From assembly GCA_023396915.1 (NCBI GenBank), contig JAEWUV010000001.1, positions 21,206 to 85,205 of the forward strand: a DNA stretch of 64,000 nucleotides. The letters run 5' to 3'. Below, one piece after another: positions 7,843-20,270 of the stretch. Both the position numbers and the translations under genes were made by a program. Below the pieces are notes generated by a model. The model was not told where the DNA came from. It searched no databases and saw only the letters and a list, made by a program, of their open reading frames with translations. Each line of letters begins with the position of its first letter. Within the stretch, counting starts at the first letter, position 1. The stretch comes from Candidatus Parcubacteria bacterium. GTDB taxonomy: Bacteria > Patescibacteriota > Microgenomatia > UBA12405.

Positions 7843-8313
7843 TTAAGCCTTTGGCTTAATCACCACATGCCTTTGTTCACCTTCGCCTTCCGACTCACTT
7901 ACCACCCCTTCCATTTCCGAAATCACCATATGACAAATCCGTCTTTCATAAGAACTCATATTAGCCAAAGCCACATCTTTATTGCTTACCAAACATTTCT
8001 CAGCCAGACCTCTCACCATATTTGTCAATCTTTCTTTTTGTTCATTTCGATAGTTATTAATATCAAGAAGAACTCTGACTTCTTCACCGACTTGATTCCG
8101 CACTATCAAAGCCAAAATTAACTGCACTGCCGCCAAGTTTCTTCCTCTAAAACCAATTAATCCTGCCGGATTAGCTACTGTAATTCCCACTAATACTTGA
8201 TTTTCTTCACCCTCAACGTCTTCCACAAAGGCTTTTTCCACTTCAAAATTGATCTGTGCCAAAAAATCACAAGTAAGTTGTAAGATTTTTTCATTTCTTT
8301 TTTTATTATCCAT
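7843..8313 (-). CDS. jag: Jag/KhpB-like RNA-binding protein (KH + R3H).
   Basis: R3H-like C-terminus (LTNMVRGLAEKCLVSNKDVALANMSSYERRICHMVI). Sits in the conserved yidC-jag position next to the origin. Confidence 0.7.
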   Translation of the reverse strand: MDNKKRNEKILQLTCDFLAQINFEVEKAFVEDVEGEENQVLVGITVANPAGLIGFRGRNLAAVQLILALIVRNQVGEEVRVLLDINNYRNEQKERLTNMVRGLAEKCLVSNKDVALANMSSYERRICHMVISEMEGVVSESEGEGEQRHVVIKPKA

Positions 8314-8354
8314 AGCCGCTATTTTAGCATAAAAATTTCCCGATAAAATAATAA

Positions 8355-8440
8355 ATTTAAATTTAGAAGTTATAATTTTTCAGCGAATTTCAACGCAAAG
8401 CATTGACTTAAGATGAAAAATTCGTAACAAGAAATTTAAA
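8355..8440. repeat. R1 repeat copy 4 (the most diverged), upstream of jag.
   Basis: aaatttagaagttataatttttcagcgaatttcaacgcaaagcattgacttaagatgaaaaattcgtaacaagaaattt. Confidence 0.65.
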
Positions 8441-8445
8441 TAGAA

Positions 8446-9228
8446 TTATTTTTTACTAAGTCTATTTACCAAAACCTGTTGGCCGACGGTTAATAGAGAC
8501 GTAGTAAACCAATACAACAACAAACCCAAAGCAAAATTCCAGCCAATAAAAATTGTCATCAATGGCATCATATAAAGTGATTGGGTTCTCATCGCCGCCA
8601 TCATATCATCACCTTTTTCCTTTGTAGTATCGGCAATATTTTCACTTACTTTAGGGCTAGGCATCATAATTTTTGCTGCTAAAAACTGTAAGGCTCCTGA
8701 ACCTAATAATAAAACTACTGCCATTATCAAATTCATTCCCATACCCTGAGCAAAAGCCTTTGATGGAGTCAAAGATAAATCACTCCCCAAAAAATTTAAA
8801 TTAAAATTAAAACCTTCCTCAATTCTAAAAGAGGGGATTAATTGGGCATTGATATCCGCCACACTACTTTTTTGTCCAGCTCTCGAAAAACCACTTACCA
8901 TATTAAAAGCCGAAAAGAAAAGCAATAGCACTACTATTTGTAAAATCTGTGGCAAACACCCCGACATTGGATTAACCCCTTCTTGTTTATATAAACTCAT
9001 CTGAGCCTGAGCCAAAGCTTGTTTATTAGTTCCATATTTCTCTTTTAATTTATTCAATTTAGGTTGTAATTCTCTTATTTTTCCGGCCGATTTTAAACTT
9101 GGCCAAATCAATGGAAAGAGTATTACTCTCAATAAAACTGTTACTGCTACAATCGACCAACCAAAATTCCCAAACCAATAATAAAAAGCAAACAATGCAT
9201 TAACAAATGGCGCTATTAATAAATTCAT
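8446..9228 (-). CDS. yidC: Membrane protein insertase YidC (short form).
   Basis: Motifs of the YidC/Oxa1 family (LLRVILFPL..., GCLPQILQIVVL) and the conserved origin-region gene order. Confidence 0.9.
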   Translation of the reverse strand: MNLLIAPFVNALFAFYYWFGNFGWSIVAVTVLLRVILFPLIWPSLKSAGKIRELQPKLNKLKEKYGTNKQALAQAQMSLYKQEGVNPMSGCLPQILQIVVLLLFFSAFNMVSGFSRAGQKSSVADINAQLIPSFRIEEGFNFNLNFLGSDLSLTPSKAFAQGMGMNLIMAVVLLLGSGALQFLAAKIMMPSPKVSENIADTTKEKGDDMMAAMRTQSLYMMPLMTIFIGWNFALGLLLYWFTTSLLTVGQQVLVNRLSKK

Positions 9229-9237
9229 AAGTAATAG

Positions 9238-9441
9238 TCATTTTAACAAATCAATTCCTTTTCCACCACCCGGCCTACACCTCAAAACCCGATTTAATCC
9301 CAACCATAAACCTTTTACAACTCCATATTTTTCTACCGCCTGATAGGTATATTCCGAACAAGAGGGGATAAATCTACATTGTTCACCCCTAGAAATATAT
9401 TTTTTATACCAAACCAACAACTTTAAAACTATTTTTTTCAT
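9238..9441 (-). CDS. yidD: Membrane protein insertion efficiency factor YidD.
   Basis: CRFIPSCSEY motif. 67 aa. Confidence 0.9.
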   Translation of the reverse strand: MKKIVLKLLVWYKKYISRGEQCRFIPSCSEYTYQAVEKYGVVKGLWLGLNRVLRCRPGGGKGIDLLK

Positions 9442-9773
9442 TAAAGCTTTGGGATTAACCTGTCCACCTCTTTTTCTAAATCAACCACACTTGCCTCTAA
9501 AGCTGCTTTTTTAACCAAAAACAATACCCTCAACCCACTCTGAAACTTATCCAACTTTTTACTTAAAACTACCATTAGTCTTCTCTTAATCTTATTTCTA
9601 TCAACCGCTCTTTTAGAAATCTTTTTAGAAATAATTACCCCAAATTTAAGTAATTTATCCTCTTTATCTTCCGTTACCACTCCAAAAAAAGGGGACGACA
9701 ACACCATTTTCCCTTTTTCTTTTAAATCCCCAAACTCCTTCCTTTTAGAAATCCTGTTTATCTTTTTCAGCAC
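9441..9773 (-). CDS. rnpA: RNase P protein component.
   Basis: Basic 110-aa protein immediately downstream of rpmH. Its stop overlaps the yidD start (ATGA). Confidence 0.8.
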   Translation of the reverse strand: MLKKINRISKRKEFGDLKEKGKMVLSSPFFGVVTEDKEDKLLKFGVIISKKISKRAVDRNKIKRRLMVVLSKKLDKFQSGLRVLFLVKKAALEASVVDLEKEVDRLIPKL

Positions 9774-9787
9774 AAGATAATTATACC

Positions 9788-9925
9788 TTAGGCACTAATC
9801 TTTTTTCGTCCCTTAGCCCTTCGTCTTTTCAAAACATTTCTGCCAGTAGCGCTTTTCATTCGCTTCAAAAATCCGTGAACCCGTGAATGTCTTTTACTTT
9901 TTGGTTGATATGTTCTTTTTGTCAT
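9788..9925 (-). CDS. rpmH: 50S ribosomal protein L34. Not in the ORF track because it is under 60 aa.
   Basis: Translation [45 protein letters not shown] is near-universal L34. Confidence 0.92.
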
Positions 9926-9954
9926 AAGTCGTATTTTAACATATAAAAAGTTAA

Positions 9955-10040
9955 TTATTATAAATTCGAAATCGTAATTTTTTGACGAATTTCAACACGC
10001 CAGTATTGACTGAGGCAAAAAATTCATGATAAGAATTTAT
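9955..10040. repeat. R1 repeat copy 5, 30-115 nt upstream of the rpmH start (minus strand).
   Basis: aaattcgaaatcgtaattttttgacgaatttcaacacgccagtattgactgaggcaaaaaattcatgataagaattt. Confidence 0.75.
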
Positions 10041-10051
10041 AAGTTTGCTTC

Positions 10052-10170
10052 AAATTATCCTCTTTCATTTTGTGGAAAACTCATTTATTATGATGTGGAT
10101 AACTCAAAAACAACTCCTCCGGTTGTTTGCAGTCCCGCTACTGCGGGATTATCCTTCCCCACACCACTGC
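10052..10170. promoter_or_regulatory. rpmH-dnaA intergenic region: DnaA boxes (TGTGGATAA at 10094-10102, TGTGGAAAA at 10071-10079, plus weaker ttatcctct/ttatccttc) and a palindromic hairpin TCCCGCtactGCGGGA (10133-10148).
   Basis: Direct read of 9-mers matching TTATCCACA or its reverse complement. The dnaA promoter and autoregulation region. Confidence 0.6.
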
Positions 10171-10213
10171 CTAATTTATTTTTTTAGTCATTAGAAGTTA
10201 GTTATTTTTATTT

Positions 10214-11554
10214 ATGGATTTAGATCGTCTTTGGAAAAATACTCAAGAAGAACTTAAAATTGTCATGGCTCCGGCTGTTTACCAAACATTTGTCAGTAAA
10301 ACCCAACTTATTAAATTAGAAAATAATCTTGCCATTCTAGCCTGTCCTAATTCCTATTTAGTAGATATCAACAAAAAACGCCATTATCAAACTTTTAAAC
10401 TAGCCCTAGATAACCAAACCAAAACAGATAATCATATTGAATTTACTATCCAGCAAACAGAAAAACAAAACACCTCAATAGACTCCTCTCCTTTATTTGA
10501 ATATTCTAAACAAAAAAACACTTTTCAGTCTGGTCTCCACCCAAAATACACTTTCGACACTCTTATTGTTGGTAATAGTAATAATTTTGCCTATGCTGCC
10601 GCCCAAGGTATTATCAAAAACCCCGGTCTGTCTTACAACCCTTTCTTTATTTGGGGTGGGGTAGGAGTCGGCAAAACCCATTTAATGCAAGCTATTGGTC
10701 ATGAGCTTTTAAAAAATAATCCTGATTATAAAATTTCTTATTTCCCCGCAGAAACTTTTGGTAATGAACTCATCGCCGCCCTTAAAAGCAAAACTATGAA
10801 CAAATTCAAAGATAAATACCGCAATCTTGATTGTATTTTAGTCGACGATATTCAATTCATTGCCGGAAAAGAATATATCCAAGAAGAGTTTTTCCACACT
10901 TTCAACAGTCTTCATATGAATGGCAAACAAGTAATTCTCACCTCTGACCGTAAACCCAGTGAAATTGACCACCTTGAAGACCGATTAGTTTCTCGTTTTA
11001 TGGGTGGATTAACCGTTGATATTCAACTTCCAGATTATGAAATGCGAACCGCTATTATTAACCAAAAAATAGAAGAAAAAGGCTTAAAAATTACCCCAGA
11101 AGCCGCTTCTTATTTAGCTAATAATATTGAATCAAATATTCGTGAAATTGACGGCAAATTACAACAAATAATTATTCAATCAATCGCCAATAAAACAGAA
11201 GAAATTGATATTAATTTTATTCACCAGTTTTATAGTCCCCAATCAAACTTTGGTTTTAATGACTCCAACCAAAACATTAACCCTCGTCATATTATTTCTG
11301 TTTGTGCCAAATTTTTTAATATTAAAACAGGGGATTTATGTGGTAAAAGCCGAAAAAAAGAACTTGTCCAAGCCCGTCATATTACCGCTTATCTTTTACT
11401 TAATGAAATTAATCTTCCACTTGAAGAGGTTGGTCGCCTTCTTGGGGGCCGTGACCACACCAGTATTATGCATGCCCGAGACAAAATCCACACTGACTTA
11501 TCCACTAATTCACAAATTAGCAAAGTTATTAACCAAATTAAATCTGCTTTTTAA
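10214..11554 (+). CDS. dnaA: Chromosomal replication initiator DnaA.
   Basis: AAA+ Walker A GGVGVGKTHLMQAIG and DnaA domain IV (ARHITAYLL...GGRDHTSIMHA). Confidence 0.95.
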   Translation: MDLDRLWKNTQEELKIVMAPAVYQTFVSKTQLIKLENNLAILACPNSYLVDINKKRHYQTFKLALDNQTKTDNHIEFTIQQTEKQNTSIDSSPLFEYSKQKNTFQSGLHPKYTFDTLIVGNSNNFAYAAAQGIIKNPGLSYNPFFIWGGVGVGKTHLMQAIGHELLKNNPDYKISYFPAETFGNELIAALKSKTMNKFKDKYRNLDCILVDDIQFIAGKEYIQEEFFHTFNSLHMNGKQVILTSDRKPSEIDHLEDRLVSRFMGGLTVDIQLPDYEMRTAIINQKIEEKGLKITPEAASYLANNIESNIREIDGKLQQIIIQSIANKTEEIDINFIHQFYSPQSNFGFNDSNQNINPRHIISVCAKFFNIKTGDLCGKSRKKELVQARHITAYLLLNEINLPLEEVGRLLGGRDHTSIMHARDKIHTDLSTNSQISKVINQIKSAF

Positions 11555-11833
11555 TCAAAATTTACTTATCCACAAAATTATTAGTTTATCCACCAACTTA
11601 TCCACAAAATTATTTTTCTTTTTCCCCCGAAACTTACCCCAACTCCATATTTATTTTATAAGATAATTAAAATCAAAAATAACCAAAATATCGCCAAATT
11701 TAGTTTTTAAACACAATTAATTTTCAAAAAACATGATTCTTACCACTTTTTCATCAAACTATTCCACTTATAAACCCCACCTAATAACTAACACTACTAT
11801 TTTTTTTATTAATTTATATCTATAATAAAGCCA
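11555..11833. promoter_or_regulatory. Candidate oriC between dnaA and dnaN. Three same-orientation DnaA boxes (TTATCCACA 11566-11574, TTATCCACC 11586-11594, TTATCCACA 11598-11606) are followed by an AT-rich putative unwinding element (about 11640-11830).
   Basis: Perfect consensus 9-mers read directly. The downstream stretch is extremely AT-rich with A/T tracts. Confidence 0.7.
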
Positions 11834-12949
11834 ATGAATCTCTCTCTTCTCCAGGAGAACCTCAACCTTGCCCTGACCAACGTTTCCCGTTTTGTTTCTT
11901 CTAAAAATCAACTACCAGTATTAAATAATATTTTATTGTCTACCAATCAGGGTCGTCTCAAGTTATCTGCCACTAATTTAGAACTAAGTATTAATTATTG
12001 GATTGGTGCCAAAATAGAAGAAGAGGGGAGTATCACTATCCCCTCAAAAGAAATCACCGAATTTGTTTCTTATCTACCAACAGGAAAAATTGACTTAGAA
12101 CTCAAAAACAACCTTTTAACTCTTTCTTCTGAAAAAACCAATTCCGAATTCACCACTACTCCAGCTACAGATTTCCCCGAGTTTCCTAAAATAAATCCTG
12201 AAACCATATTCGAAATTGATTTTGATCTTTTTACTCAAAGCATTAATCAAATTTCTTTTTCCGCTGCTCTTGATGACACTCGGCCTATTTTAACTGGTGT
12301 TTTATGTATTTTTGAAAAAAAATCTGTCAAATTTATTGCCACTGACGGTTTCCGTCTTTCTTTAAAAGAAATCAAATTAGAAATACCACTTGATATTAAA
12401 AAAGAATCTTTGAGTTTTTTGATTCCCGCTAAATCCTTAATAGAAGTCACTAAACTGGCTAAAAACGATTCAAAAATTAAAATAGGTCTTACATCTGATG
12501 AACACCAAGTAATATTCATTCTAGACGATATAGAACTAGTTTCTCGACTTATAGAGGGTGAGTTTCCGGATTATAAAAAATTAATTCCTGAAAACTACTC
12601 TACCAAAGTCTTTATAAATAAAGATGAATTATTCCAATCAGTTAAACTTGCCTCTGTTTTTGCCAGAGAGTCAGCTAATGTAGTTAAAATCAATATTAAA
12701 AATAATAATTTAGAATTAACCGCTAACGCCCCTCAGGTTGGCCAAAATTTAATTAAAATAGACTCAAAAACTGAAGGAGAGAACTTAGAAGTTGCTTTTA
12801 ATTATAAATTCCTAATCGATTTTCTTAATGTTTGCAAAAGTAATGAGATTCTAATTGAATTAAATGAGAGTCTCAGTCCTGTTTTTTTTCACGACCAATC
12901 CGACCCTTCCTTTACTCATATAATAATGCCAGTTCGTTTACAAGACTAA
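11834..12949 (+). CDS. dnaN: DNA polymerase III beta sliding clamp.
   Basis: MNLSLLQENLNLALTNVSRFVSS... beta-clamp N-terminus, about 370 aa, downstream of dnaA. Confidence 0.9.
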   Translation: MNLSLLQENLNLALTNVSRFVSSKNQLPVLNNILLSTNQGRLKLSATNLELSINYWIGAKIEEEGSITIPSKEITEFVSYLPTGKIDLELKNNLLTLSSEKTNSEFTTTPATDFPEFPKINPETIFEIDFDLFTQSINQISFSAALDDTRPILTGVLCIFEKKSVKFIATDGFRLSLKEIKLEIPLDIKKESLSFLIPAKSLIEVTKLAKNDSKIKIGLTSDEHQVIFILDDIELVSRLIEGEFPDYKKLIPENYSTKVFINKDELFQSVKLASVFARESANVVKINIKNNNLELTANAPQVGQNLIKIDSKTEGENLEVAFNYKFLIDFLNVCKSNEILIELNESLSPVFFHDQSDPSFTHIIMPVRLQD

Positions 12950-14688
12950 TTACTTGTCTCCACTGCATTTTCATCCCAGAATTGTGCTCCCTGAAAATAA
13001 CCTGGCCCAAAAACTTGTTGATTAGCAAGGAATAAGGACCCTGCTATAATTGCAATCAAAATTCCAGCCGACACTGCTACTGCCGCTTTTACTTTAAACC
13101 CTCCAATAGAAGAAAGTGCTCCCCCTAAACCATTAACTCCCTTCAAAAATCCACCTCCAAGCCTCGTAATTCCATTTCCCAACCCTTTTCTAATCCCTGG
13201 CCCTAATCTACTCCCTAAGTCTCCCAAAGATTTTTTCAAAAAACCACCTGTTGTTGCCGACAAGTTCTTTAATCCATTTGAAATATTTCCCATTAATCCC
13301 AATCTCATACCCCCTCCATTTGCCATACCAGCATAAACCCTCCCCATCGCATCACCAAGACTGTTCCCAGTAAACATTTTTATCGACCTTTCTATATTTT
13401 GATTTTGTTGGCTCCCAATTTTTCTTTGTCCGCCCATAAACCGGTACATATTTACTTTTGTTTCCCCAAAGAGAGCCCTTTTTCTTTGAATTCGCTCCAG
13501 TGCTCCTTTGACTTTCTCATCTTTTCTTAAAACCGCATTTACTCTGTCAAAAGCATCTAAATTAGAATCAGCTGGAATTTTTAAACCACCCAATACTACA
13601 TCTGCTTTTTCCGACTTTTCCAATATATCTCTTGTTTCTTTAGGAGATATATTTACATATCCCGCCGTTACATTAAAATTATCAACGGCAATTTTAGCTT
13701 TACCGGAAGGGTCTTTACTTAATATTGAATTTTCTTGATTTTTAATTTCATTGTCTAAATTAAGCACTTGACTAGATAATTTCTTTTTTACCCTTACAGC
13801 TTGTTTTTGCTCTTCGGTTATTTTCCCTCCATTTTCTTTTTTAACTTTTTCTACAAACCTTTCAGTCAAATAATTATCGACTGCCTCACGATGCTCAGAT
13901 GCCCATTTTTCTAACTCTAATGTTATCGCTTTAATTTTTACCTTATATTCCAATTGAGATATTTCTCCTTTAGCCACAGCTCTGGTTAAATCATTTATTT
14001 TTTCTTCATTACTCTTAATTTCTGACCCATCTATAATTCTTTCCATTTCAGTTTCAATTCTGCTTATTGTTTCCTTATCTACCTCACTCTTCCCGGATTC
14101 TTGAGCCAATTTTCTGCTTAAATCTTGAATTTTCCCCTTCACTAATTTCACATCTTCTTTAACTTTTTTATCAACAACTTCTTCCCTTACTACTGTCCCA
14201 TCTTCAGCCTTACTTTTATCTTCTGGTTTTTCCTCTATAACAACCCCTTCCTCCGCTTTAATTTTTTCACTTTTAAGTTTAGTTTGAGTCTCAATAAATC
14301 TTCTTATATTTTCATCAGCTAAACTTGGTTTTTTATCTAAAATATCTTGAATTTCTTTTAAAACAGCCTCACTACTATTATCATTTTTGGCTTGTTTTTC
14401 ATCAAACTCTTTTAATAATTCATCTAGTTTTTGCTTACTAATTTGCTCATCACCAATCTTTTTTTCCGCATCTGCTTTTCTTTCTAGACTATTGATTGCT
14501 TCGTCAACTTTGTCAGATATAACCCCTTTAACTAATTCATCGAGAGATTTTTTAAACTCACCATTTGGGTCTAACTCTCCTCCTAATTCTTTTAACTGTC
14601 GCAAATAAATTAAACCATCATCAAAAGAAATTACTTTTATACTATTCAAAAAAACAATTTGTCCTTCTCTGTCATTTGGTAACGCCAT
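12946..14688 (-). CDS. Hypothetical 580-aa protein: long coiled-coil N-terminal two-thirds, a Gly-rich (GxxG repeat) region and a C-terminal TM helix. Last gene of the VirB4 operon.
   Basis: E/K-rich heptad-like sequence, then GGGMRLGLMGNISNGLKN...GLGNGITRLGGGFLKGVNGLGGALSSIGG, then AAVAVSAGILIAIIAGSLFL. No recognisable catalytic motif. Confidence 0.4.
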   Translation of the reverse strand: MALPNDREGQIVFLNSIKVISFDDGLIYLRQLKELGGELDPNGEFKKSLDELVKGVISDKVDEAINSLERKADAEKKIGDEQISKQKLDELLKEFDEKQAKNDNSSEAVLKEIQDILDKKPSLADENIRRFIETQTKLKSEKIKAEEGVVIEEKPEDKSKAEDGTVVREEVVDKKVKEDVKLVKGKIQDLSRKLAQESGKSEVDKETISRIETEMERIIDGSEIKSNEEKINDLTRAVAKGEISQLEYKVKIKAITLELEKWASEHREAVDNYLTERFVEKVKKENGGKITEEQKQAVRVKKKLSSQVLNLDNEIKNQENSILSKDPSGKAKIAVDNFNVTAGYVNISPKETRDILEKSEKADVVLGGLKIPADSNLDAFDRVNAVLRKDEKVKGALERIQRKRALFGETKVNMYRFMGGQRKIGSQQNQNIERSIKMFTGNSLGDAMGRVYAGMANGGGMRLGLMGNISNGLKNLSATTGGFLKKSLGDLGSRLGPGIRKGLGNGITRLGGGFLKGVNGLGGALSSIGGFKVKAAVAVSAGILIAIIAGSLFLANQQVFGPGYFQGAQFWDENAVETSN

Positions 14689-14721
14689 TTACTAAATTAT
14701 AGCAACTAATTACTACGCAAA

Positions 14722-17007
14722 TTAAATTATTCCACTATCTAGTAAATCGTCAGGAGTAGGTTCGTTGCTGTTTGTTTTATTCTCAAACAAAGGCGTCGGT
14801 TTTTTTGCTAATTGTGGCGGTTGGGGAATATTGGTCTCTTCTGTTTTTACAAAAATCGGTTTTTGTTTTTGTTCTGGTTCTAGTACCTCCATTTTAGGTG
14901 GTACAAATCTGTCTTGTTTTTCTTGACTATCCAATCTAATCTCTCCTGATAAATTAGGCTTTTTAACCTCAGCTTTTTCTAACTCATCAATCTTTTTTTG
15001 AAGTATATCTTCTACTTCATTTTTTTGAACCTCTTTACTTTCCTCTGAACTTTCACTTTTTGGAGTTTCAGTCAGAGGCTGATTAACCACTGGCTGAGGA
15101 GCTGGAATTTCAGCTTTTGGTTGAGGAACTGGAGTCTCAGTCTTTGGCTGAGGAGTTGGAGTTTTTTCAAGTGTTTCCAATTTTCTTTTTCTCAAAACCT
15201 CTTCCGGGTCAGAAGTAATTAATTGATGTTCTTCCTCTGAAGCAATAACTTCTACTGCTACATGGTTCTGTCCAGCAAAAAAGAGACCTTGGCCTTTATC
15301 AGCGGTTAATAATAATTGTTTTTCTCCTTCACTTAAATAAAATACCTCACCCACCTGATCAATTGCCGCCGCGTGTTGTTTAAGTAAAATCTGAATCGAA
15401 CTATTAGTTACAATTTCTTTTCCGTAAGTACTCTTTAAAAAATCATTAACATCCTGAGTAATTGTAGTCACACCCAAATAATATTTTCTACCTCTTTTAA
15501 CTACCCCTCTTAAAAACTGAGCCGAATCTTCGTATTGCATCATATACCAAGCTTCATCTACCACTAAAATCCTTTTCTTTAATGTCTTTTTAACTATGGT
15601 CCAAATATAGTCCAAAATAATATGCATCGCTACTGGCCTCAAAGTTTCTTCTAGATTTTTTATCCCAAACACCACAAATTGATTGGTTAAATTAACTGTA
15701 GTTTTTTGATTAAAAATACCCGCAAACGACCCTTTAATATATTTTTCCATCCTAGCAGCTATCATTTGGGCTTTTTCTTCCTCTCTTCCTATTAAAGCTT
15801 TATAAACATCCTCAATCAAAGGTGGCTCTTTATTTTGGGTTTCTGGGTCTGGGGTTATCCCTTTTGCTTTATAAGCATCCATCAAAGCCTTATCTAAAAT
15901 AGACTCTTCCATTGGATCTAATGCCCCCAACATTACCTTCATTAATTTATGGACCGAAAGAGTTTTACTGTTCAAAGCATTCTCTCCTTCCTCTTCTACC
16001 AAAGACAAATCCATTGGGTTTATTTTCGACTCTTCATTGTAGCCAAAAGCAATATATTGCCCTCCGGCCGCATCGGCCAAGTCCTTATATTCGTTTTCAG
16101 GATCTATTACAATTACTTCTGTTCCAAACATCAAAGATCGCAATACTTCCAACTTAATCATATAAGACTTTCCTACGCCTGAGGTAGCAAAAACCACTGA
16201 GTTGTAGTTCGGCATGGAAAATCGGTCAAAAATTATTAACGATCCATTATGGGCATTAATCCCATACATTACTCCCTTATCGTCAGACAAATCAGAAGAT
16301 ACAAATGGAAAAGTTGTTGCCAACGAAGTGGTGTCCATATTTCTGGTTATTCCCAATCTGTCACTATTAGCCGGTAAACAAGTTATAAAACCATCTTCCA
16401 TCTGCAAAGTTGCTCTTTTACTCACTACCAACAAAGACCCTAATGCCGCCTCTAAATTTTTATTAATCCTATCCAAATCCTCTTTAGAATCTGCTGAAAT
16501 ATTTATATAAAGCCCAAACTGAAAAAACCTTTCTTCTCCTTTTACTAAATCTGCTTGTAAATTCAAAGCGTCTTCAAGCTTTGCTTGTGTTGCCGGATTT
16601 ACCAATCGACCACGTTGGATATCAGTACTTAATTCCGCCTCCATTTCTGTAATTTTGCGTCGTAAATCATCTAAAATCGCCTTGCCATCAGTTGGATAAA
16701 TATACATCGAGATATTCAGTGTCCAATCAAAATTAATCAAAGAAGACAGCCAATTCATCCCGACAAACCTTGGATAACCGGATACAAATAAGGTTCGAAA
16801 ATATTTATCACCAATTCTGACATGGTTAAAATCAACTTCCAAAGATGATGGGGCAATTATATCTTTAATCGAAACTAATCCATCGGAAAAATCTCTTTTT
16901 TTAGTATTATCAACAACTCCAGATTCCTCTGTTTTTTCCTTAGAATTACCCTTGTTTTCCACAGCCACAGTTTTTGGTTTTCTAATTATATTTTTCAATA
17001 AATCCAT
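14722..17007 (-). CDS. virB4: VirB4/TrsE/PrgJ-family type IV secretion ATPase (C-terminal 761-aa portion) with a P/Q/K/E-rich disordered tail.
   Basis: IAPSSLEVDFNHVRIGDKYFRTLFVSGYPRFVGMNWL is the CagE_TrbE_VirB N-region. Walker A is FATSGVGKS and Walker B is ILVVDEAWYMM. The tail has PTPQPKTETPVPQPKAEIPAPQP repeats. Confidence 0.85.
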   Translation of the reverse strand: MDLLKNIIRKPKTVAVENKGNSKEKTEESGVVDNTKKRDFSDGLVSIKDIIAPSSLEVDFNHVRIGDKYFRTLFVSGYPRFVGMNWLSSLINFDWTLNISMYIYPTDGKAILDDLRRKITEMEAELSTDIQRGRLVNPATQAKLEDALNLQADLVKGEERFFQFGLYINISADSKEDLDRINKNLEAALGSLLVVSKRATLQMEDGFITCLPANSDRLGITRNMDTTSLATTFPFVSSDLSDDKGVMYGINAHNGSLIIFDRFSMPNYNSVVFATSGVGKSYMIKLEVLRSLMFGTEVIVIDPENEYKDLADAAGGQYIAFGYNEESKINPMDLSLVEEEGENALNSKTLSVHKLMKVMLGALDPMEESILDKALMDAYKAKGITPDPETQNKEPPLIEDVYKALIGREEEKAQMIAARMEKYIKGSFAGIFNQKTTVNLTNQFVVFGIKNLEETLRPVAMHIILDYIWTIVKKTLKKRILVVDEAWYMMQYEDSAQFLRGVVKRGRKYYLGVTTITQDVNDFLKSTYGKEIVTNSSIQILLKQHAAAIDQVGEVFYLSEGEKQLLLTADKGQGLFFAGQNHVAVEVIASEEEHQLITSDPEEVLRKRKLETLEKTPTPQPKTETPVPQPKAEIPAPQPVVNQPLTETPKSESSEESKEVQKNEVEDILQKKIDELEKAEVKKPNLSGEIRLDSQEKQDRFVPPKMEVLEPEQKQKPIFVKTEETNIPQPPQLAKKPTPLFENKTNSNEPTPDDLLDSGII

Positions 17008-17009
17008 AG

Positions 17010-17708
17010 TTATTTGGTTGTGACCATTGGGCTGTAATAATTAACCTCTTTAAGTTTTTGGTTATCCGCTACTTCCGGGTTATATATTTTATAAAATAAT
17101 TCAGTTAACTCTTTGTTTTCCAAAAGTGAAACCTCCAAACCTAATCTCGAGAATAACCTTATCAAATGATCTTTTTTCGGTTCTAAACTCGCTTTCGCCT
17201 TTTCTAGAATATAACTTTTAGGATAAGGCAAACCAATATTTCTATCTTTTTTTATCAATCCTTTTAAACTTTGTTTACCCATACTCTTAATTCCCAATTC
17301 TGCCGAAGAAAACTTGACCACCACATAAAACGATTTAGATAAAACATCATTTCTTTTAACTATATCTTCGATAAACTTTCTATATTTTTTAATTCTCTCT
17401 TTCAACATTTTATTCTCCTGTTTTTCTTCCGCTTCATTCAACCTTTTCATATAAGACCCAATGTCTTTAGTGTCAGATTTAATTATTATTTGAACAGGAA
17501 AGTTTAAAGAATTTAAAATTCCACCGTAAGCCATTATCAACGCCGATTGTTCCCTCTCTGACAATAAATCAAAATTTACCGAAGAAACTCTTAATATTGA
17601 AACCGCTGAACCGTCTTTCAAAATAACTACATCCTCAATAATATCCTCAATCGGCAAATGCTCTTGAGTTGTACCTTTAATAGCTATTTTAAGAGGATCG
17701 TTTGGCAT
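17010..17708 (-). CDS. VirB4-family N-terminal domain fragment (232 aa). Probably the 5' part of the same virB4 gene, separated by a frameshift.
   Basis: LPIEDIIEDVVILKDGSAVSILRVSSVNFDLLSEREQSALIMAYGGILNSLNFPVQIII resembles the extreme N-terminus of Gram-positive VirB4 (PrgJ/TcpF-like). Its stop (17010-17012) lies 2 nt from the next ATG, which is in a different frame. Confidence 0.55.
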   Translation of the reverse strand: MPNDPLKIAIKGTTQEHLPIEDIIEDVVILKDGSAVSILRVSSVNFDLLSEREQSALIMAYGGILNSLNFPVQIIIKSDTKDIGSYMKRLNEAEEKQENKMLKERIKKYRKFIEDIVKRNDVLSKSFYVVVKFSSAELGIKSMGKQSLKGLIKKDRNIGLPYPKSYILEKAKASLEPKKDHLIRLFSRLGLEVSLLENKELTELFYKIYNPEVADNQKLKEVNYYSPMVTTK

Positions 17709-17722
17709 ATATTAATAATAAA

Positions 17723-18661
17723 CTAATTGTGAGCTATTATTCTAACTGGGTCAACAATTTCACCTTTCAAATCAATATTAACTCTATCAAAACCATAACC
17801 TTCCTTTTCGGCAATCAATAGATACCTTCCATTAGCCAGTGGAGTCGATATTTTAAACTGACCCAAAGCATTAGTTTTGATAACCCTAGTTGGATTCCCA
17901 TGCATGTCTTGAATTTCTATAATTACTCCATCAACTATCTTCCCTTCACTATCTGTCGCCATCCCTACAATTACATTGGAAATATCTGGTCTATTCGGCA
18001 TTGGAATACTGCCAAAAACTGCCTTTCCTGTGGCTTCCAATTTTTCTTTCTTTAAATTTAAATCAACTGTTTTCCTCTCTTGAATATTAATTTCCTCTAT
18101 TTTTTCTTCCGGTATCACTTCTGTTACTTTTCTGATTTCATCAGAAACAGGTTCAATTACTCTTTCTTTAACACTGTTTTGTTTTGGCTTTATTTCAATT
18201 GCCTCATTTTTTTTATTTTTAGCGATTTTAATTTTAAAATTACTCCCAACATTAGAAGTATTTGTTTGATCTATCTTTTTCTTAAAAACAATATCAGCGT
18301 TTTTATTTTCGTACAATTGAGCCGTTTCTTCCTCTTTTTTTTGAGGGCTACTTAATTCCAACCAGTCTTCATTTTTCTTCTTGTAAGTATATATTGTCGG
18401 AGCATAAATCGACTTTAGAAAAGCTATAGCCCATGTTTCCAAGGGCCTATCTTCAAAAGGAATAAAAGCCAACGCTAATCCTAAACCGCCGGTAGCAAAC
18501 ATTAACGGCCACTTAAATATCGCCAATAATTTCGTTTTATATATTAATATCGCAATTATTATGCCTCCGGCAGCTTTTGCAAACTGCTTTAACGTCATAT
18601 CTCCTACCAATTTAAATTCATAGGATGATATTTGTTGTGGAATCGGGTGTTGCATTTCCAT
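17723..18661 (-). CDS. PrgI-family (VirB3-like) T4SS membrane protein fused to a C-terminal carboxypeptidase-regulatory-like (CarboxypepD_reg) beta-sandwich domain.
   Basis: N-terminus QISSYEFKLVGDMTLKQFAKAAGGIIIAILIY...FIPFEDRPLETWAIAFLKSIYAPTIYTYKK matches PrgI family (PF12666) features. C-terminus GKIVDGVIIEIQDMHGNPTRVIKTNALGQFKISTPLANGRYLLIAEKEGYG matches the carboxypeptidase regulatory-like domain. Confidence 0.6.
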   Translation of the reverse strand: MEMQHPIPQQISSYEFKLVGDMTLKQFAKAAGGIIIAILIYKTKLLAIFKWPLMFATGGLGLALAFIPFEDRPLETWAIAFLKSIYAPTIYTYKKKNEDWLELSSPQKKEEETAQLYENKNADIVFKKKIDQTNTSNVGSNFKIKIAKNKKNEAIEIKPKQNSVKERVIEPVSDEIRKVTEVIPEEKIEEINIQERKTVDLNLKKEKLEATGKAVFGSIPMPNRPDISNVIVGMATDSEGKIVDGVIIEIQDMHGNPTRVIKTNALGQFKISTPLANGRYLLIAEKEGYGFDRVNIDLKGEIVDPVRIIAHN

Positions 18662-18670
18662 TACTAAATT

Positions 18671-19285
18671 CTACCGTAAAATCTCCGCCAGTTTCCAGTT
18701 TGATTTTTCATAATCACCTGGGTTATACCAATATGTTTGCCAACCCATTTGTTTAGGTATTTCTAAATTTTCCTGTTTATTATCTATGAACAAGATTTCA
18801 CTACTTTCAACCTCGGCTCTTTTTTGGGCAATTTCATAAATTTTTCTATCCGGCTTTCTGCATTTCTCTATTGACGAATCCGCAATCACATCCCAATTCA
18901 TGTTTGGAATCAATCCTTTTTCTTTAATCAAATTCAACATCCCTTCATACATATTTGTTAACAAACCCACTTTATATTTATTTTTAACACTATTTACTAT
19001 TTGCCAAATTCCTTCGTTTCTAACAAAAAAATTATTTACCATATCATCACCAATGGAATAATTATTCGGCAAATTAATCCCAAATCTATCTCTCATTATT
19101 AAGGGAAAATCTCTCAATTTTTTACCTTTTTCTAAATCTTTTTCAAAAATATCAAAAAAATCATCAAATTTTTGTTGTTGAGAATCCTTTAACCCTAGTT
19201 TTTTTAATAATACTTTCCAACCATTATCATCGTCACTCAAATCTTTTATCAATACCCCGCCAACATCAAAATAAACAAATTTCAT
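18671..19285 (-). CDS. HAD-superfamily hydrolase.
   Basis: FDVGGVL (DxG motif I), LLTN, KPD, FIDN motifs. Confidence 0.65.
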   Translation of the reverse strand: MKFVYFDVGGVLIKDLSDDDNGWKVLLKKLGLKDSQQQKFDDFFDIFEKDLEKGKKLRDFPLIMRDRFGINLPNNYSIGDDMVNNFFVRNEGIWQIVNSVKNKYKVGLLTNMYEGMLNLIKEKGLIPNMNWDVIADSSIEKCRKPDRKIYEIAQKRAEVESSEILFIDNKQENLEIPKQMGWQTYWYNPGDYEKSNWKLAEILR

Positions 19286-19313
19286 ATTTAATTCTACCTT
19301 AATCTATTTTTTA

Positions 19314-19365
19314 AGCCCTCCCTTTTTCAAGGGAGGGTGCCCGATAGGGCGGGTGGGTTTAATTC
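19314..19365. repeat. Composite GC-hairpin element, copy D (agCCCTCCCtttttcaaGGGAGGGtgCCCGatagggCGGGtgggtttaattc), immediately upstream of the 5'-3' exonuclease start.
   Basis: Shares hairpin-1 architecture and the gggtgggtttaatt tail with copy C at 25641. Confidence 0.65.
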
Positions 19366-19379
19366 TGCTAAACTACATC

Positions 19380-20270
19380 ATGTCTAAATTATTGATTATT
19401 GACGGTCATGCTGTTATTCATCGGGCTTACCATTCCATTCCTAACCTTACTGTCAATGGCCAACCAGTCAACGCTCTTTATGGGTTTTATTCCATGTTAC
19501 TTTCGGCCATTTCTCAAATTAACCCCAAATATTTAATTGTTTGCCTTGACTCTCCTGGTCCAACCTTTCGTCAATCAGAATTTGTTGGCTATCGGGCCAA
19601 ACGCAAAGCTCCAGACAGGGAATTAATTTCTCAACTTCCTCTTTTAGCCACCACTCTTGAACAATCTAATATCAAAACTTTTGCCATAGGTGGGTACGAA
19701 GCAGATGATCTTATTGGCACCATCGCTCGTAAGGCCTCAAAAAAGAAGTTTATCAGTGAAACTATAATTATCACTGGCGACAAGGATTTGATGCAATTAG
19801 TCGACTCTAAAACCCATTTACTTATGCCTCTTCGTGGTCTTTCAGAGACTAAATTATTTAAATCTCCAGATGTTGTCGAAAAATTAGGAGTAAAACCAGA
19901 CCAAGTCGTCGACCTTAAAGCTTTAATGGGGGACATGTCTGACTGCTATCCTGGCGTTGCCGGTATTGGTCCAAAAGCCGCGACAAATCTTTTATCTGAA
20001 TATCAAAATTTAGACAATATCTACTCTCACCTAGAAGAAATTAAACCAAGCATCAAAGAAAAATTAGCCAAAGAAAAAGACAATGCCTATCTTTCCCAAA
20101 AATTAGCCACTATTATTGACAACATCCCTCTTGATTTCAAATTCTCAGAAAGCAAATGGAGCCCGGAAATTATCTGTAGTCTCAAAAATATGTTTAAAAG
20201 TTATAATTTTAAATCTCTCATTTCTCGTCTCGACCAAGACACCAAACCCCAACAATCTTCTTTATTTTAA
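19380..20270 (+). CDS. 5'-3' exonuclease / FEN (Pol I N-terminal-like). The real start is likely the ATG at 19380 (MSKLLIIDGHAV...) rather than the track start at 19353.
   Basis: LLIIDGHAVIHRAYHS N-terminus and acidic metal-binding residues. The upstream in-frame codons lie within the hairpin element. Confidence 0.85.
   Translation: MSKLLIIDGHAVIHRAYHSIPNLTVNGQPVNALYGFYSMLLSAISQINPKYLIVCLDSPGPTFRQSEFVGYRAKRKAPDRELISQLPLLATTLEQSNIKTFAIGGYEADDLIGTIARKASKKKFISETIIITGDKDLMQLVDSKTHLLMPLRGLSETKLFKSPDVVEKLGVKPDQVVDLKALMGDMSDCYPGVAGIGPKAATNLLSEYQNLDNIYSHLEEIKPSIKEKLAKEKDNAYLSQKLATIIDNIPLDFKFSESKWSPEIICSLKNMFKSYNFKSLISRLDQDTKPQQSSLF

Follow-up and report, generated by a model that had tools for sequence, protein, structure and literature searches.

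Type IV secretion systems (T4SSs) of Patescibacteria were surveyed by Quiñonero-Coronel et al. 2025 (PMC12102498), who report TrsD as the most abundant T4SS component of these bacteria and describe its remote homology to the N-terminal portion of VirB4. In that survey 1,664 of the 2,272 TrsD homologues are associated with VirB4; the gene usually adjoins virB4, the exception being the Gracilibacteria, and in Microgenomatia and Paceibacteria virB4 commonly has dnaA, dnaN and rnpA nearby. The survey also lists as essential the TrsD homologue beside virB4 in Ca. Southlakia epibionticum ML1, based on Wang et al. 2023 (PMC10633639), where the T4SS cluster SEML1_0006-0019 of this species is essential. 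For the TrsD–VirB4 homology it cites Guglielmini et al. 2014 (PMC4027160), the main text of which does not contain the word TrsD. Here we describe a trsD-like gene and a virB4 gene, referred to as open reading frames (ORFs) A and B, in a 64,000-nt window of a Patescibacterium genome (contig JAEWUV010000001.1, assembly GCA_023396915.1); all coordinates refer to this window. An initial annotation of this DNA had presented virB4 as split in two by a frame change and offered four causes: a sequencing indel, recent pseudogenisation, a programmed frameshift or a genuinely two-part VirB4. Our analysis leaves us highly confident of a conserved two-gene arrangement, in which a separate gene of the TrsD/TraD family is followed by a virB4 without that N-terminal segment. 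Because the window fits the description of Quiñonero-Coronel et al. 2025 in both the gene pair and the dnaA/dnaN/rnpA context, the arrangement is an instance of one already described.

Both genes lie on the minus strand. ORF A (17010..17708, 232 aa) ends with a TAA at 17012-17010, and the ATG of ORF B (14722..17007, 761 aa) is found at 17007-17005, so that the junction (17005..17012) consists of the stop codon of the trsD-like gene, a spacer of two nucleotides (CT, 17009-17008) and the start codon of virB4. The frame of ORF B is -1 (or +2) relative to that of ORF A, and it is open for 11 codons upstream of its ATG (LLQPNGHNQIT-M), overlapping the end of ORF A. The ORF coordinates, the stop, the start and the 11-codon open stretch of the initial annotation were all confirmed on the sequence; its description as a frame change within about 33 nt is misleading, as this is an ordinary close-packed operon boundary of the stop/2-nt/start type. 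A terminator and promoter search, looking for separation of the two ORFs, revealed no terminator-like site on the minus strand in 12800-19500; promoter-like matches around trsD/virB4 are frequent in this AT-rich DNA and hence uninformative. Both genes belong to the PrgI(VirB3-like)–TrsD–VirB4 operon of a chromosomal T4SS, located beside dnaA/dnaN, in a Patescibacterium that is Microgenomates/Shapirobacteria-like.

Concerning the identity of ORF A, the protein matches NF041427, which comprises the small stand-alone conjugative-transfer proteins of the TrsD/TraD family, with an E-value of 4.8e-11 and 42.8 bits, the curated cut-off being 200. It also matches N-terminal positions of VirB4 models (103-287 of 894 in NF045975 and 9-139 of 792 in TIGR00929), and the NF041427 match and the VirB4-model match are equally significant (E 4.8e-11). 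A precomputed match to PF26593 (‘TraC-like’; E<=1e-5) exists for the exact ORF A protein and for all 120 listed homologues; our Pfam scan of a local copy returned no match for ORF A. We read NF041427 and PF26593 as the same domain. ORF A combines two traits of the family: its product is homologous to the N-terminal part of fused VirB4 proteins, and it is a small stand-alone protein encoded directly upstream of a VirB4-type ATPase gene, with a 2-nt gap. A sequence search against PDB chains gave only chance-level matches (a TetR regulator at E 0.009 and CagA at E 1.1), whereas comparison of the predicted fold placed VirB4 of R388 (TrwK, PDB 7o42) clearly at the top; kinship to VirB4 structures is therefore visible only through the fold and not through the PDB sequence search. 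The second tier of fold matches consists of type III secretion chaperones. Disorder is predicted for the last residues of ORF A (218-232), where pLDDT is below 50. Similar-looking beta-strand motifs at the starts of both ORFs prompted a separate comparison, in which the idea that ORF A duplicates the N-terminal region of ORF B was rejected (best BLASTP E-value 24).

ORF B is a VirB4-family ATPase. Its score against NF045971 (conju_CD1110, the CD1110-family VirB4) is 391 bits, above the curated equivalog cut-off of 325, and it contains a P-loop ATPase domain, with Pfam matches to PF19044, PF12846 and PF01935 (P-loop_TraG, AAA_10 and DUF87). The C-terminal domain of Thermoanaerobacter VirB4 (PDB 4AG5) is matched with an E-value of 8.5e-47, and the translation contains a Walker A-like GVGKS and a Walker B-like VVDEAW. 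The conserved VirB4 body corresponds to residues ~51-608. The matches cover positions 179-733 of 752 in NF045971 and 266-893 of 894 in the Mycoplasma-ICE (integrative and conjugative element) VirB4 model NF045975. ORF B therefore does not contain a complete N-terminal domain, positions 1-178 and 1-265 of the two models being absent, and by profile comparison ORF A supplies these, being homologous as a stand-alone protein to the N-proximal part of that domain. A Pro/Glu/Lys-rich C-terminal tail of ~150 aa (residues ~610-761, 14722-15180) is also present in ORF B; the naturally fused protein described below has no such tail.

This natural TrsD–VirB4 fusion of 787 aa, referred to as P0184 (NCBI MEK7091100.1), is assigned to a "Patescibacteria group bacterium", and its cluster contains three more sequences of 787 aa and one of 772 aa from separate contigs. 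It matches positions 3-735 of 752 in the CD1110 model NF045971. Residues 10-210 of ORF A align with its residues 6-199 at 47% identity and residues 51-608 of ORF B with its residues 213-771 at 63% identity, leaving a gap of 13 residues between the two alignments. ORF B begins with ~50 hydrophilic residues that do not align to P0184, and the tail of ORF A is predicted to be disordered; the break therefore falls in a linker between subdomains. Based on these alignments, the two ORFs read as contiguous with a full-length VirB4 of the Gram-positive type, and the check proposed in the initial annotation, an alignment of both to full-length VirB4, came out in favour of contiguity, as both fit P0184 end to end. 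The initial annotation had also identified the 232-aa ORF with the extreme N-terminal VirB4 domain and taken the two ORFs to sum to roughly a full-length protein; both claims are borne out, the former by the NF045975 and TIGR00929 matches together with the P0184 alignment and the latter by the 13-residue interval. At the sequence level, then, trsD and virB4 code for successive stretches of a protein that other systems make as a single polypeptide, and their separation is old and has been maintained. P0184 is the sole ATPase fusion among the six of the longest TrsD-domain representatives that were scanned (best 150 at 50% clustering). Other long representatives (P0179, P0223, P0208 and P0156 with 598-715 aa, and P0145 with 548 aa) were rejected as fusions, as they have no ATPase domain. 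P0179 (705 aa) carries a Q/N-rich low-complexity tail; such TrsD tails reach ~480 aa in other lineages.

The two-gene state is widespread among relatives. We found 721 homologues of ORF A at E<=1e-3, the best 120 of which are all stand-alone proteins of 230-254 aa with 66-91% identity, and an exhaustive search at the same threshold yielded 2,101 representatives (50% clustering), the best 150 of which have the domain at or near the N-terminus. Gene order was compared across 24 loci of GTDB species representatives: a homologue of ORF A is directly followed by one of ORF B in 20 of the 24, and 19 of those 20 also have a PrgI-like gene upstream of the pair. The split is common to Shapirobacteria, Woesebacteria, other Microgenomates and more distant Patescibacteria, down to ~30% identity. 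The initial annotation had named a 232-aa protein encoded as a separate gene in homologues as what would speak against its view, and on separateness this is essentially what the 120 best homologues and the 20 loci display.

Looking at the junctions themselves, 19 are readable, and the ORF A homologue has its own stop codon in every one of them; the comparison of orthologous loci that had been suggested thus found the split kept. The nearest ORF B start codon lies anywhere from 38 nt before the end of the ORF A stop codon to 121 nt after it, the spacing in close relatives being typically -4 to +5 nt. The junction types include TAA+1 nt+ATG, TAA+2, TAA+5, an ATGA overlap, overlaps in which a candidate ORF B start precedes the end of the ORF A stop by 8 to 38 nt, and spacers of 22 to >100 nt, several of which are A/T-rich, and relative frames 0, +1 and +2 are all seen, including an in-frame TAAATG. 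This variety makes a conserved programmed frameshift impossible. If ribosomes underwent a programmed -1 frameshift within the final 11 codons of ORF A, some A–B fusion would arise besides two separate products; such an event could make use of the 33 nt over which the ORF B frame is open before its ATG, across the end of ORF A, and a fused protein would, as P0184 demonstrates, be functional in principle. Compared with known genes of this kind (dnaX, prfB, IS3-type), however, the slippery site, the stimulatory structure and the conserved frame relation are all lacking: 17012-17045 contains no X_XXY_YYZ heptamer, the junction RNA folds no better than shuffled sequences (z 0.15) and the orthologues differ in frame, several of them having long A/T-rich spacers. 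We consider frameshifting very unlikely.

The same comparison bears on an error in the sequence. A 1-nt sequencing or assembly indel near 17008-17045, by which one virB4 would be artificially broken, finds its only argument in the geometry, namely the 11 open codons before the ATG and two parts that add up to approximately a full-length VirB4. Against it, the exact ORF A is found on 19 contigs, and the same 123 nt around the junction recur unchanged in five further contigs (ENA or Logan assemblies), each with a sample accession of its own. The best 120 homologues are all stand-alone, and relatives stop at the same place with differing junction sequences and frames. Genuine errors also look otherwise: in one locus (L029, 1106-1628) a 1-nt gap lies inside virB4 and truncates it, and in Candidatus Shapirobacteria UBA1435 (L006, 5756-7477) virB4 is in three frame pieces. 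Both are true frameshifts or assembly errors, unlike the clean trsD/virB4 boundary, and we regard an indel at that boundary as extremely improbable. Several of the GTDB species-representative MAG records (L001-L003, L005, L010, L012-L014, L016, L017 and L024) are titled ‘uncultured Gammaproteobacteria/Pseudomonadales bacterium’, yet carry a Patescibacteria-type PrgI–TrsD–VirB4 locus with 41-80% identity; the titles are probably placeholders or wrong taxonomy.

Concerning recent pseudogenisation, in which a fused virB4 would have been frameshifted lately in this lineage, the presence of the fused P0184 within Patescibacteria means that fused and split states were interconverted at some point. 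A frameshifted pseudogene or an assembly error should be a private break, with a single ORF in the orthologues, whereas essentially all relatives share this one, across many lineages of Patescibacteria. A comparison of 54 sequences, the most distant at 36% identity, also leaves 11 positions of ORF A invariant and 22 nearly so. ORF B retains its Walker motifs and its high score against the CD1110 model, and its orthologues keep a conserved start of their own (M-x-L-F/L...). The probability of a recent decay of the gene is accordingly negligible in our judgement. Of the four causes put forward in the initial annotation, the genuinely two-part VirB4 stands, and the indel, the pseudogenisation and the frameshift fall to the conserved split, the varied junctions, the identical contigs and the missing slippery site. 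For annotation, this means that a trsD/virB4 boundary in Patescibacteria or in pSK41/pIP501-type systems is not to be flagged as a frameshift or pseudogene, and that the ORFs are not to be merged.

How the two products may work together can be proposed from the gene order and from the known structure of a related system. The stop/2-nt/ATG junction points to co-transcription and to probable coupling by termination and reinitiation, which would give near-equal amounts of the TrsD-like and VirB4 proteins. The TrsD-like protein would then bind the VirB4 body in trans and rebuild the complete N-terminal domain; such a reconstitution is, in our estimation, somewhat more probable than its absence. 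The completed domain would dock the ATPase hexamer on the PrgI/VirB3 membrane subunit. In the cryo-EM structure of the R388 system, the N-terminal domain of VirB4, which spans residues 15-400, has VirB3 wrapped around it (PMC9259494), and for this reason the TrsD-containing domain is a likely docking site. The fold match of ORF A to R388 VirB4 and the P0184 fusion both support the view that TrsD is what VirB4 lacks at its N-terminus in these systems. VirB3–VirB4 fusions are known elsewhere, and their order matches the gene order PrgI–TrsD–VirB4. The proposal also provides a concrete hypothesis for the role of TrsD, a protein to which PMC12102498 assigns no function and which is reported to be essential in the only Patescibacterium amenable to genetics.

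Several observations weigh against this account of a conserved pair acting as one VirB4. Judged by its profile score, ORF A is a clear homologue but only a distant member of the NF041427 family, far below the curated cut-off. Immediately before the virB4 ATG there is no Shine-Dalgarno-like motif, which leaves the geometry of the junction as the only pointer to translational coupling. In three loci of Peribacteria and Gracilibacteria (L019, L022 and L023) there is no detectable virB4 after the ORF A homologue; TrsD can therefore be encoded away from virB4, and these loci reproduce the published Gracilibacteria exception. The TrsD-like protein also diverges faster than VirB4 in loci L001-L018 and L024 (80 vs 87% identity in L001, and 42 vs 59% in L015), and the long Q/N-rich tails of TrsD in other lineages would fit an additional role.

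Part of this evidence could be taken to suggest that the TrsD-like protein descends from the VirB4 N-terminus and is by now independent of VirB4, serving as a chaperone-like protein or an adaptor for substrates or pilins. Its faster evolution, its tails, the unlinked copies in some classes and the type III secretion chaperones among the second-tier fold matches are in keeping with such independence. The adjacency of the genes and the close-packed junctions in 20/24 loci are not, and neither are a gene order PrgI–TrsD–VirB4 that mirrors the domain order, a natural fusion with a linker of only 13 residues and a fold for which VirB4 is clearly the top match. An independent TrsD is therefore improbable, and the conserved two-part VirB4 remains our preferred explanation. 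A more far-reaching form of the latter, which we consider doubtful, is that the split is functional and not neutral: with TrsD as a detachable subunit, Patescibacteria could regulate or vary how the VirB4 hexamer docks on PrgI/VirB3, and the lineage-specific disordered tails of TrsD (up to ~480 aa, Q/N-rich) and of VirB4 (P/E/K-rich here) would serve as adaptors for substrates or pilins. If this were true, the rare P0184 fusion and the unlinked trsD of Gracilibacteria would represent different regulatory states of the same machine.

The remaining genes of the block are also on the minus strand. The first is a PrgI/VirB3-like membrane protein of 312 aa (17723..18661), whose PrgI match in the Pfam scan (PF12666, residues 6-89, E 5.2e-05) is under the gathering score. 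Its C-terminal part contains a CarboxypepD_reg-like beta-sandwich (PF13620, residues 231-293, E 6e-07, 30.2 bits with a gathering score of 32.3), which sits after a long charged linker and is unusual for VirB3-type subunits; it might be an extracellular or wall-facing domain. Downstream of virB4, after a 33-nt gap, lies a gene for a 580-aa protein of no recognised family (12946..14688), which is probably the last gene of the operon. Profile scans gave no Pfam or NCBIfam match for this protein, and the ORF is also called downstream of virB4 on the further contigs with the same sequence. The protein is rich in coiled coils, contains a Gly-rich region and, at the C-terminus, one hydrophobic segment, and could be a divergent T4SS component; VirB6 is reported to be scarce in Microgenomatia. 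Its ORF converges with dnaN, and the two share 4 nt at their 3' ends. The T4SS block is found directly beside the replication-origin neighbourhood (jag, yidC, rnpA, dnaA and dnaN, 7843-12949), in which dnaA (10214-11554, Bac_DnaA 3e-66) and dnaN (11834-12949, with DNA_pol3_beta domains) are on the plus strand and rnpA, yidC and jag are located further upstream.

Compared with described systems, the locus resembles TrsD of pSK41/pGO1 and TraD of pIP501 with their partners TrsE/TraE, in that a protein of ~200-230 aa with remote homology to the VirB4 N-terminus is encoded directly upstream of a VirB4-type ATPase gene within a T4SS cluster of the MPF_FATA (monoderm) type. Those systems belong to conjugative plasmids of Firmicutes, whereas the pair described here is chromosomal, lies beside dnaA/dnaN in a Patescibacterium and matches the family distantly (42.8 bits against 200). 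The fused VirB4 proteins of the CD1110 family (NF045971), of Mycoplasma ICEs (NF045975) and of R388 (TrwK, 7o42) are single polypeptides, unlike the present case, in which the first ~200 residues are the product of a separate gene. The closest likeness is to the T4SS of Patescibacteria (PMC12102498; PMC10633639), with the same components in the same order (PrgI/VirB3-like, TrsD and VirB4), TrsD beside virB4 and dnaA/dnaN/rnpA nearby. There is no material difference from the systems of PMC12102498, a paper in which a TrsD–VirB4 fusion in Patescibacteria, such as P0184, is not mentioned. This fusion from within Patescibacteria and the fold match to TrwK are the small addition made here, and both strengthen the published statement of remote homology.

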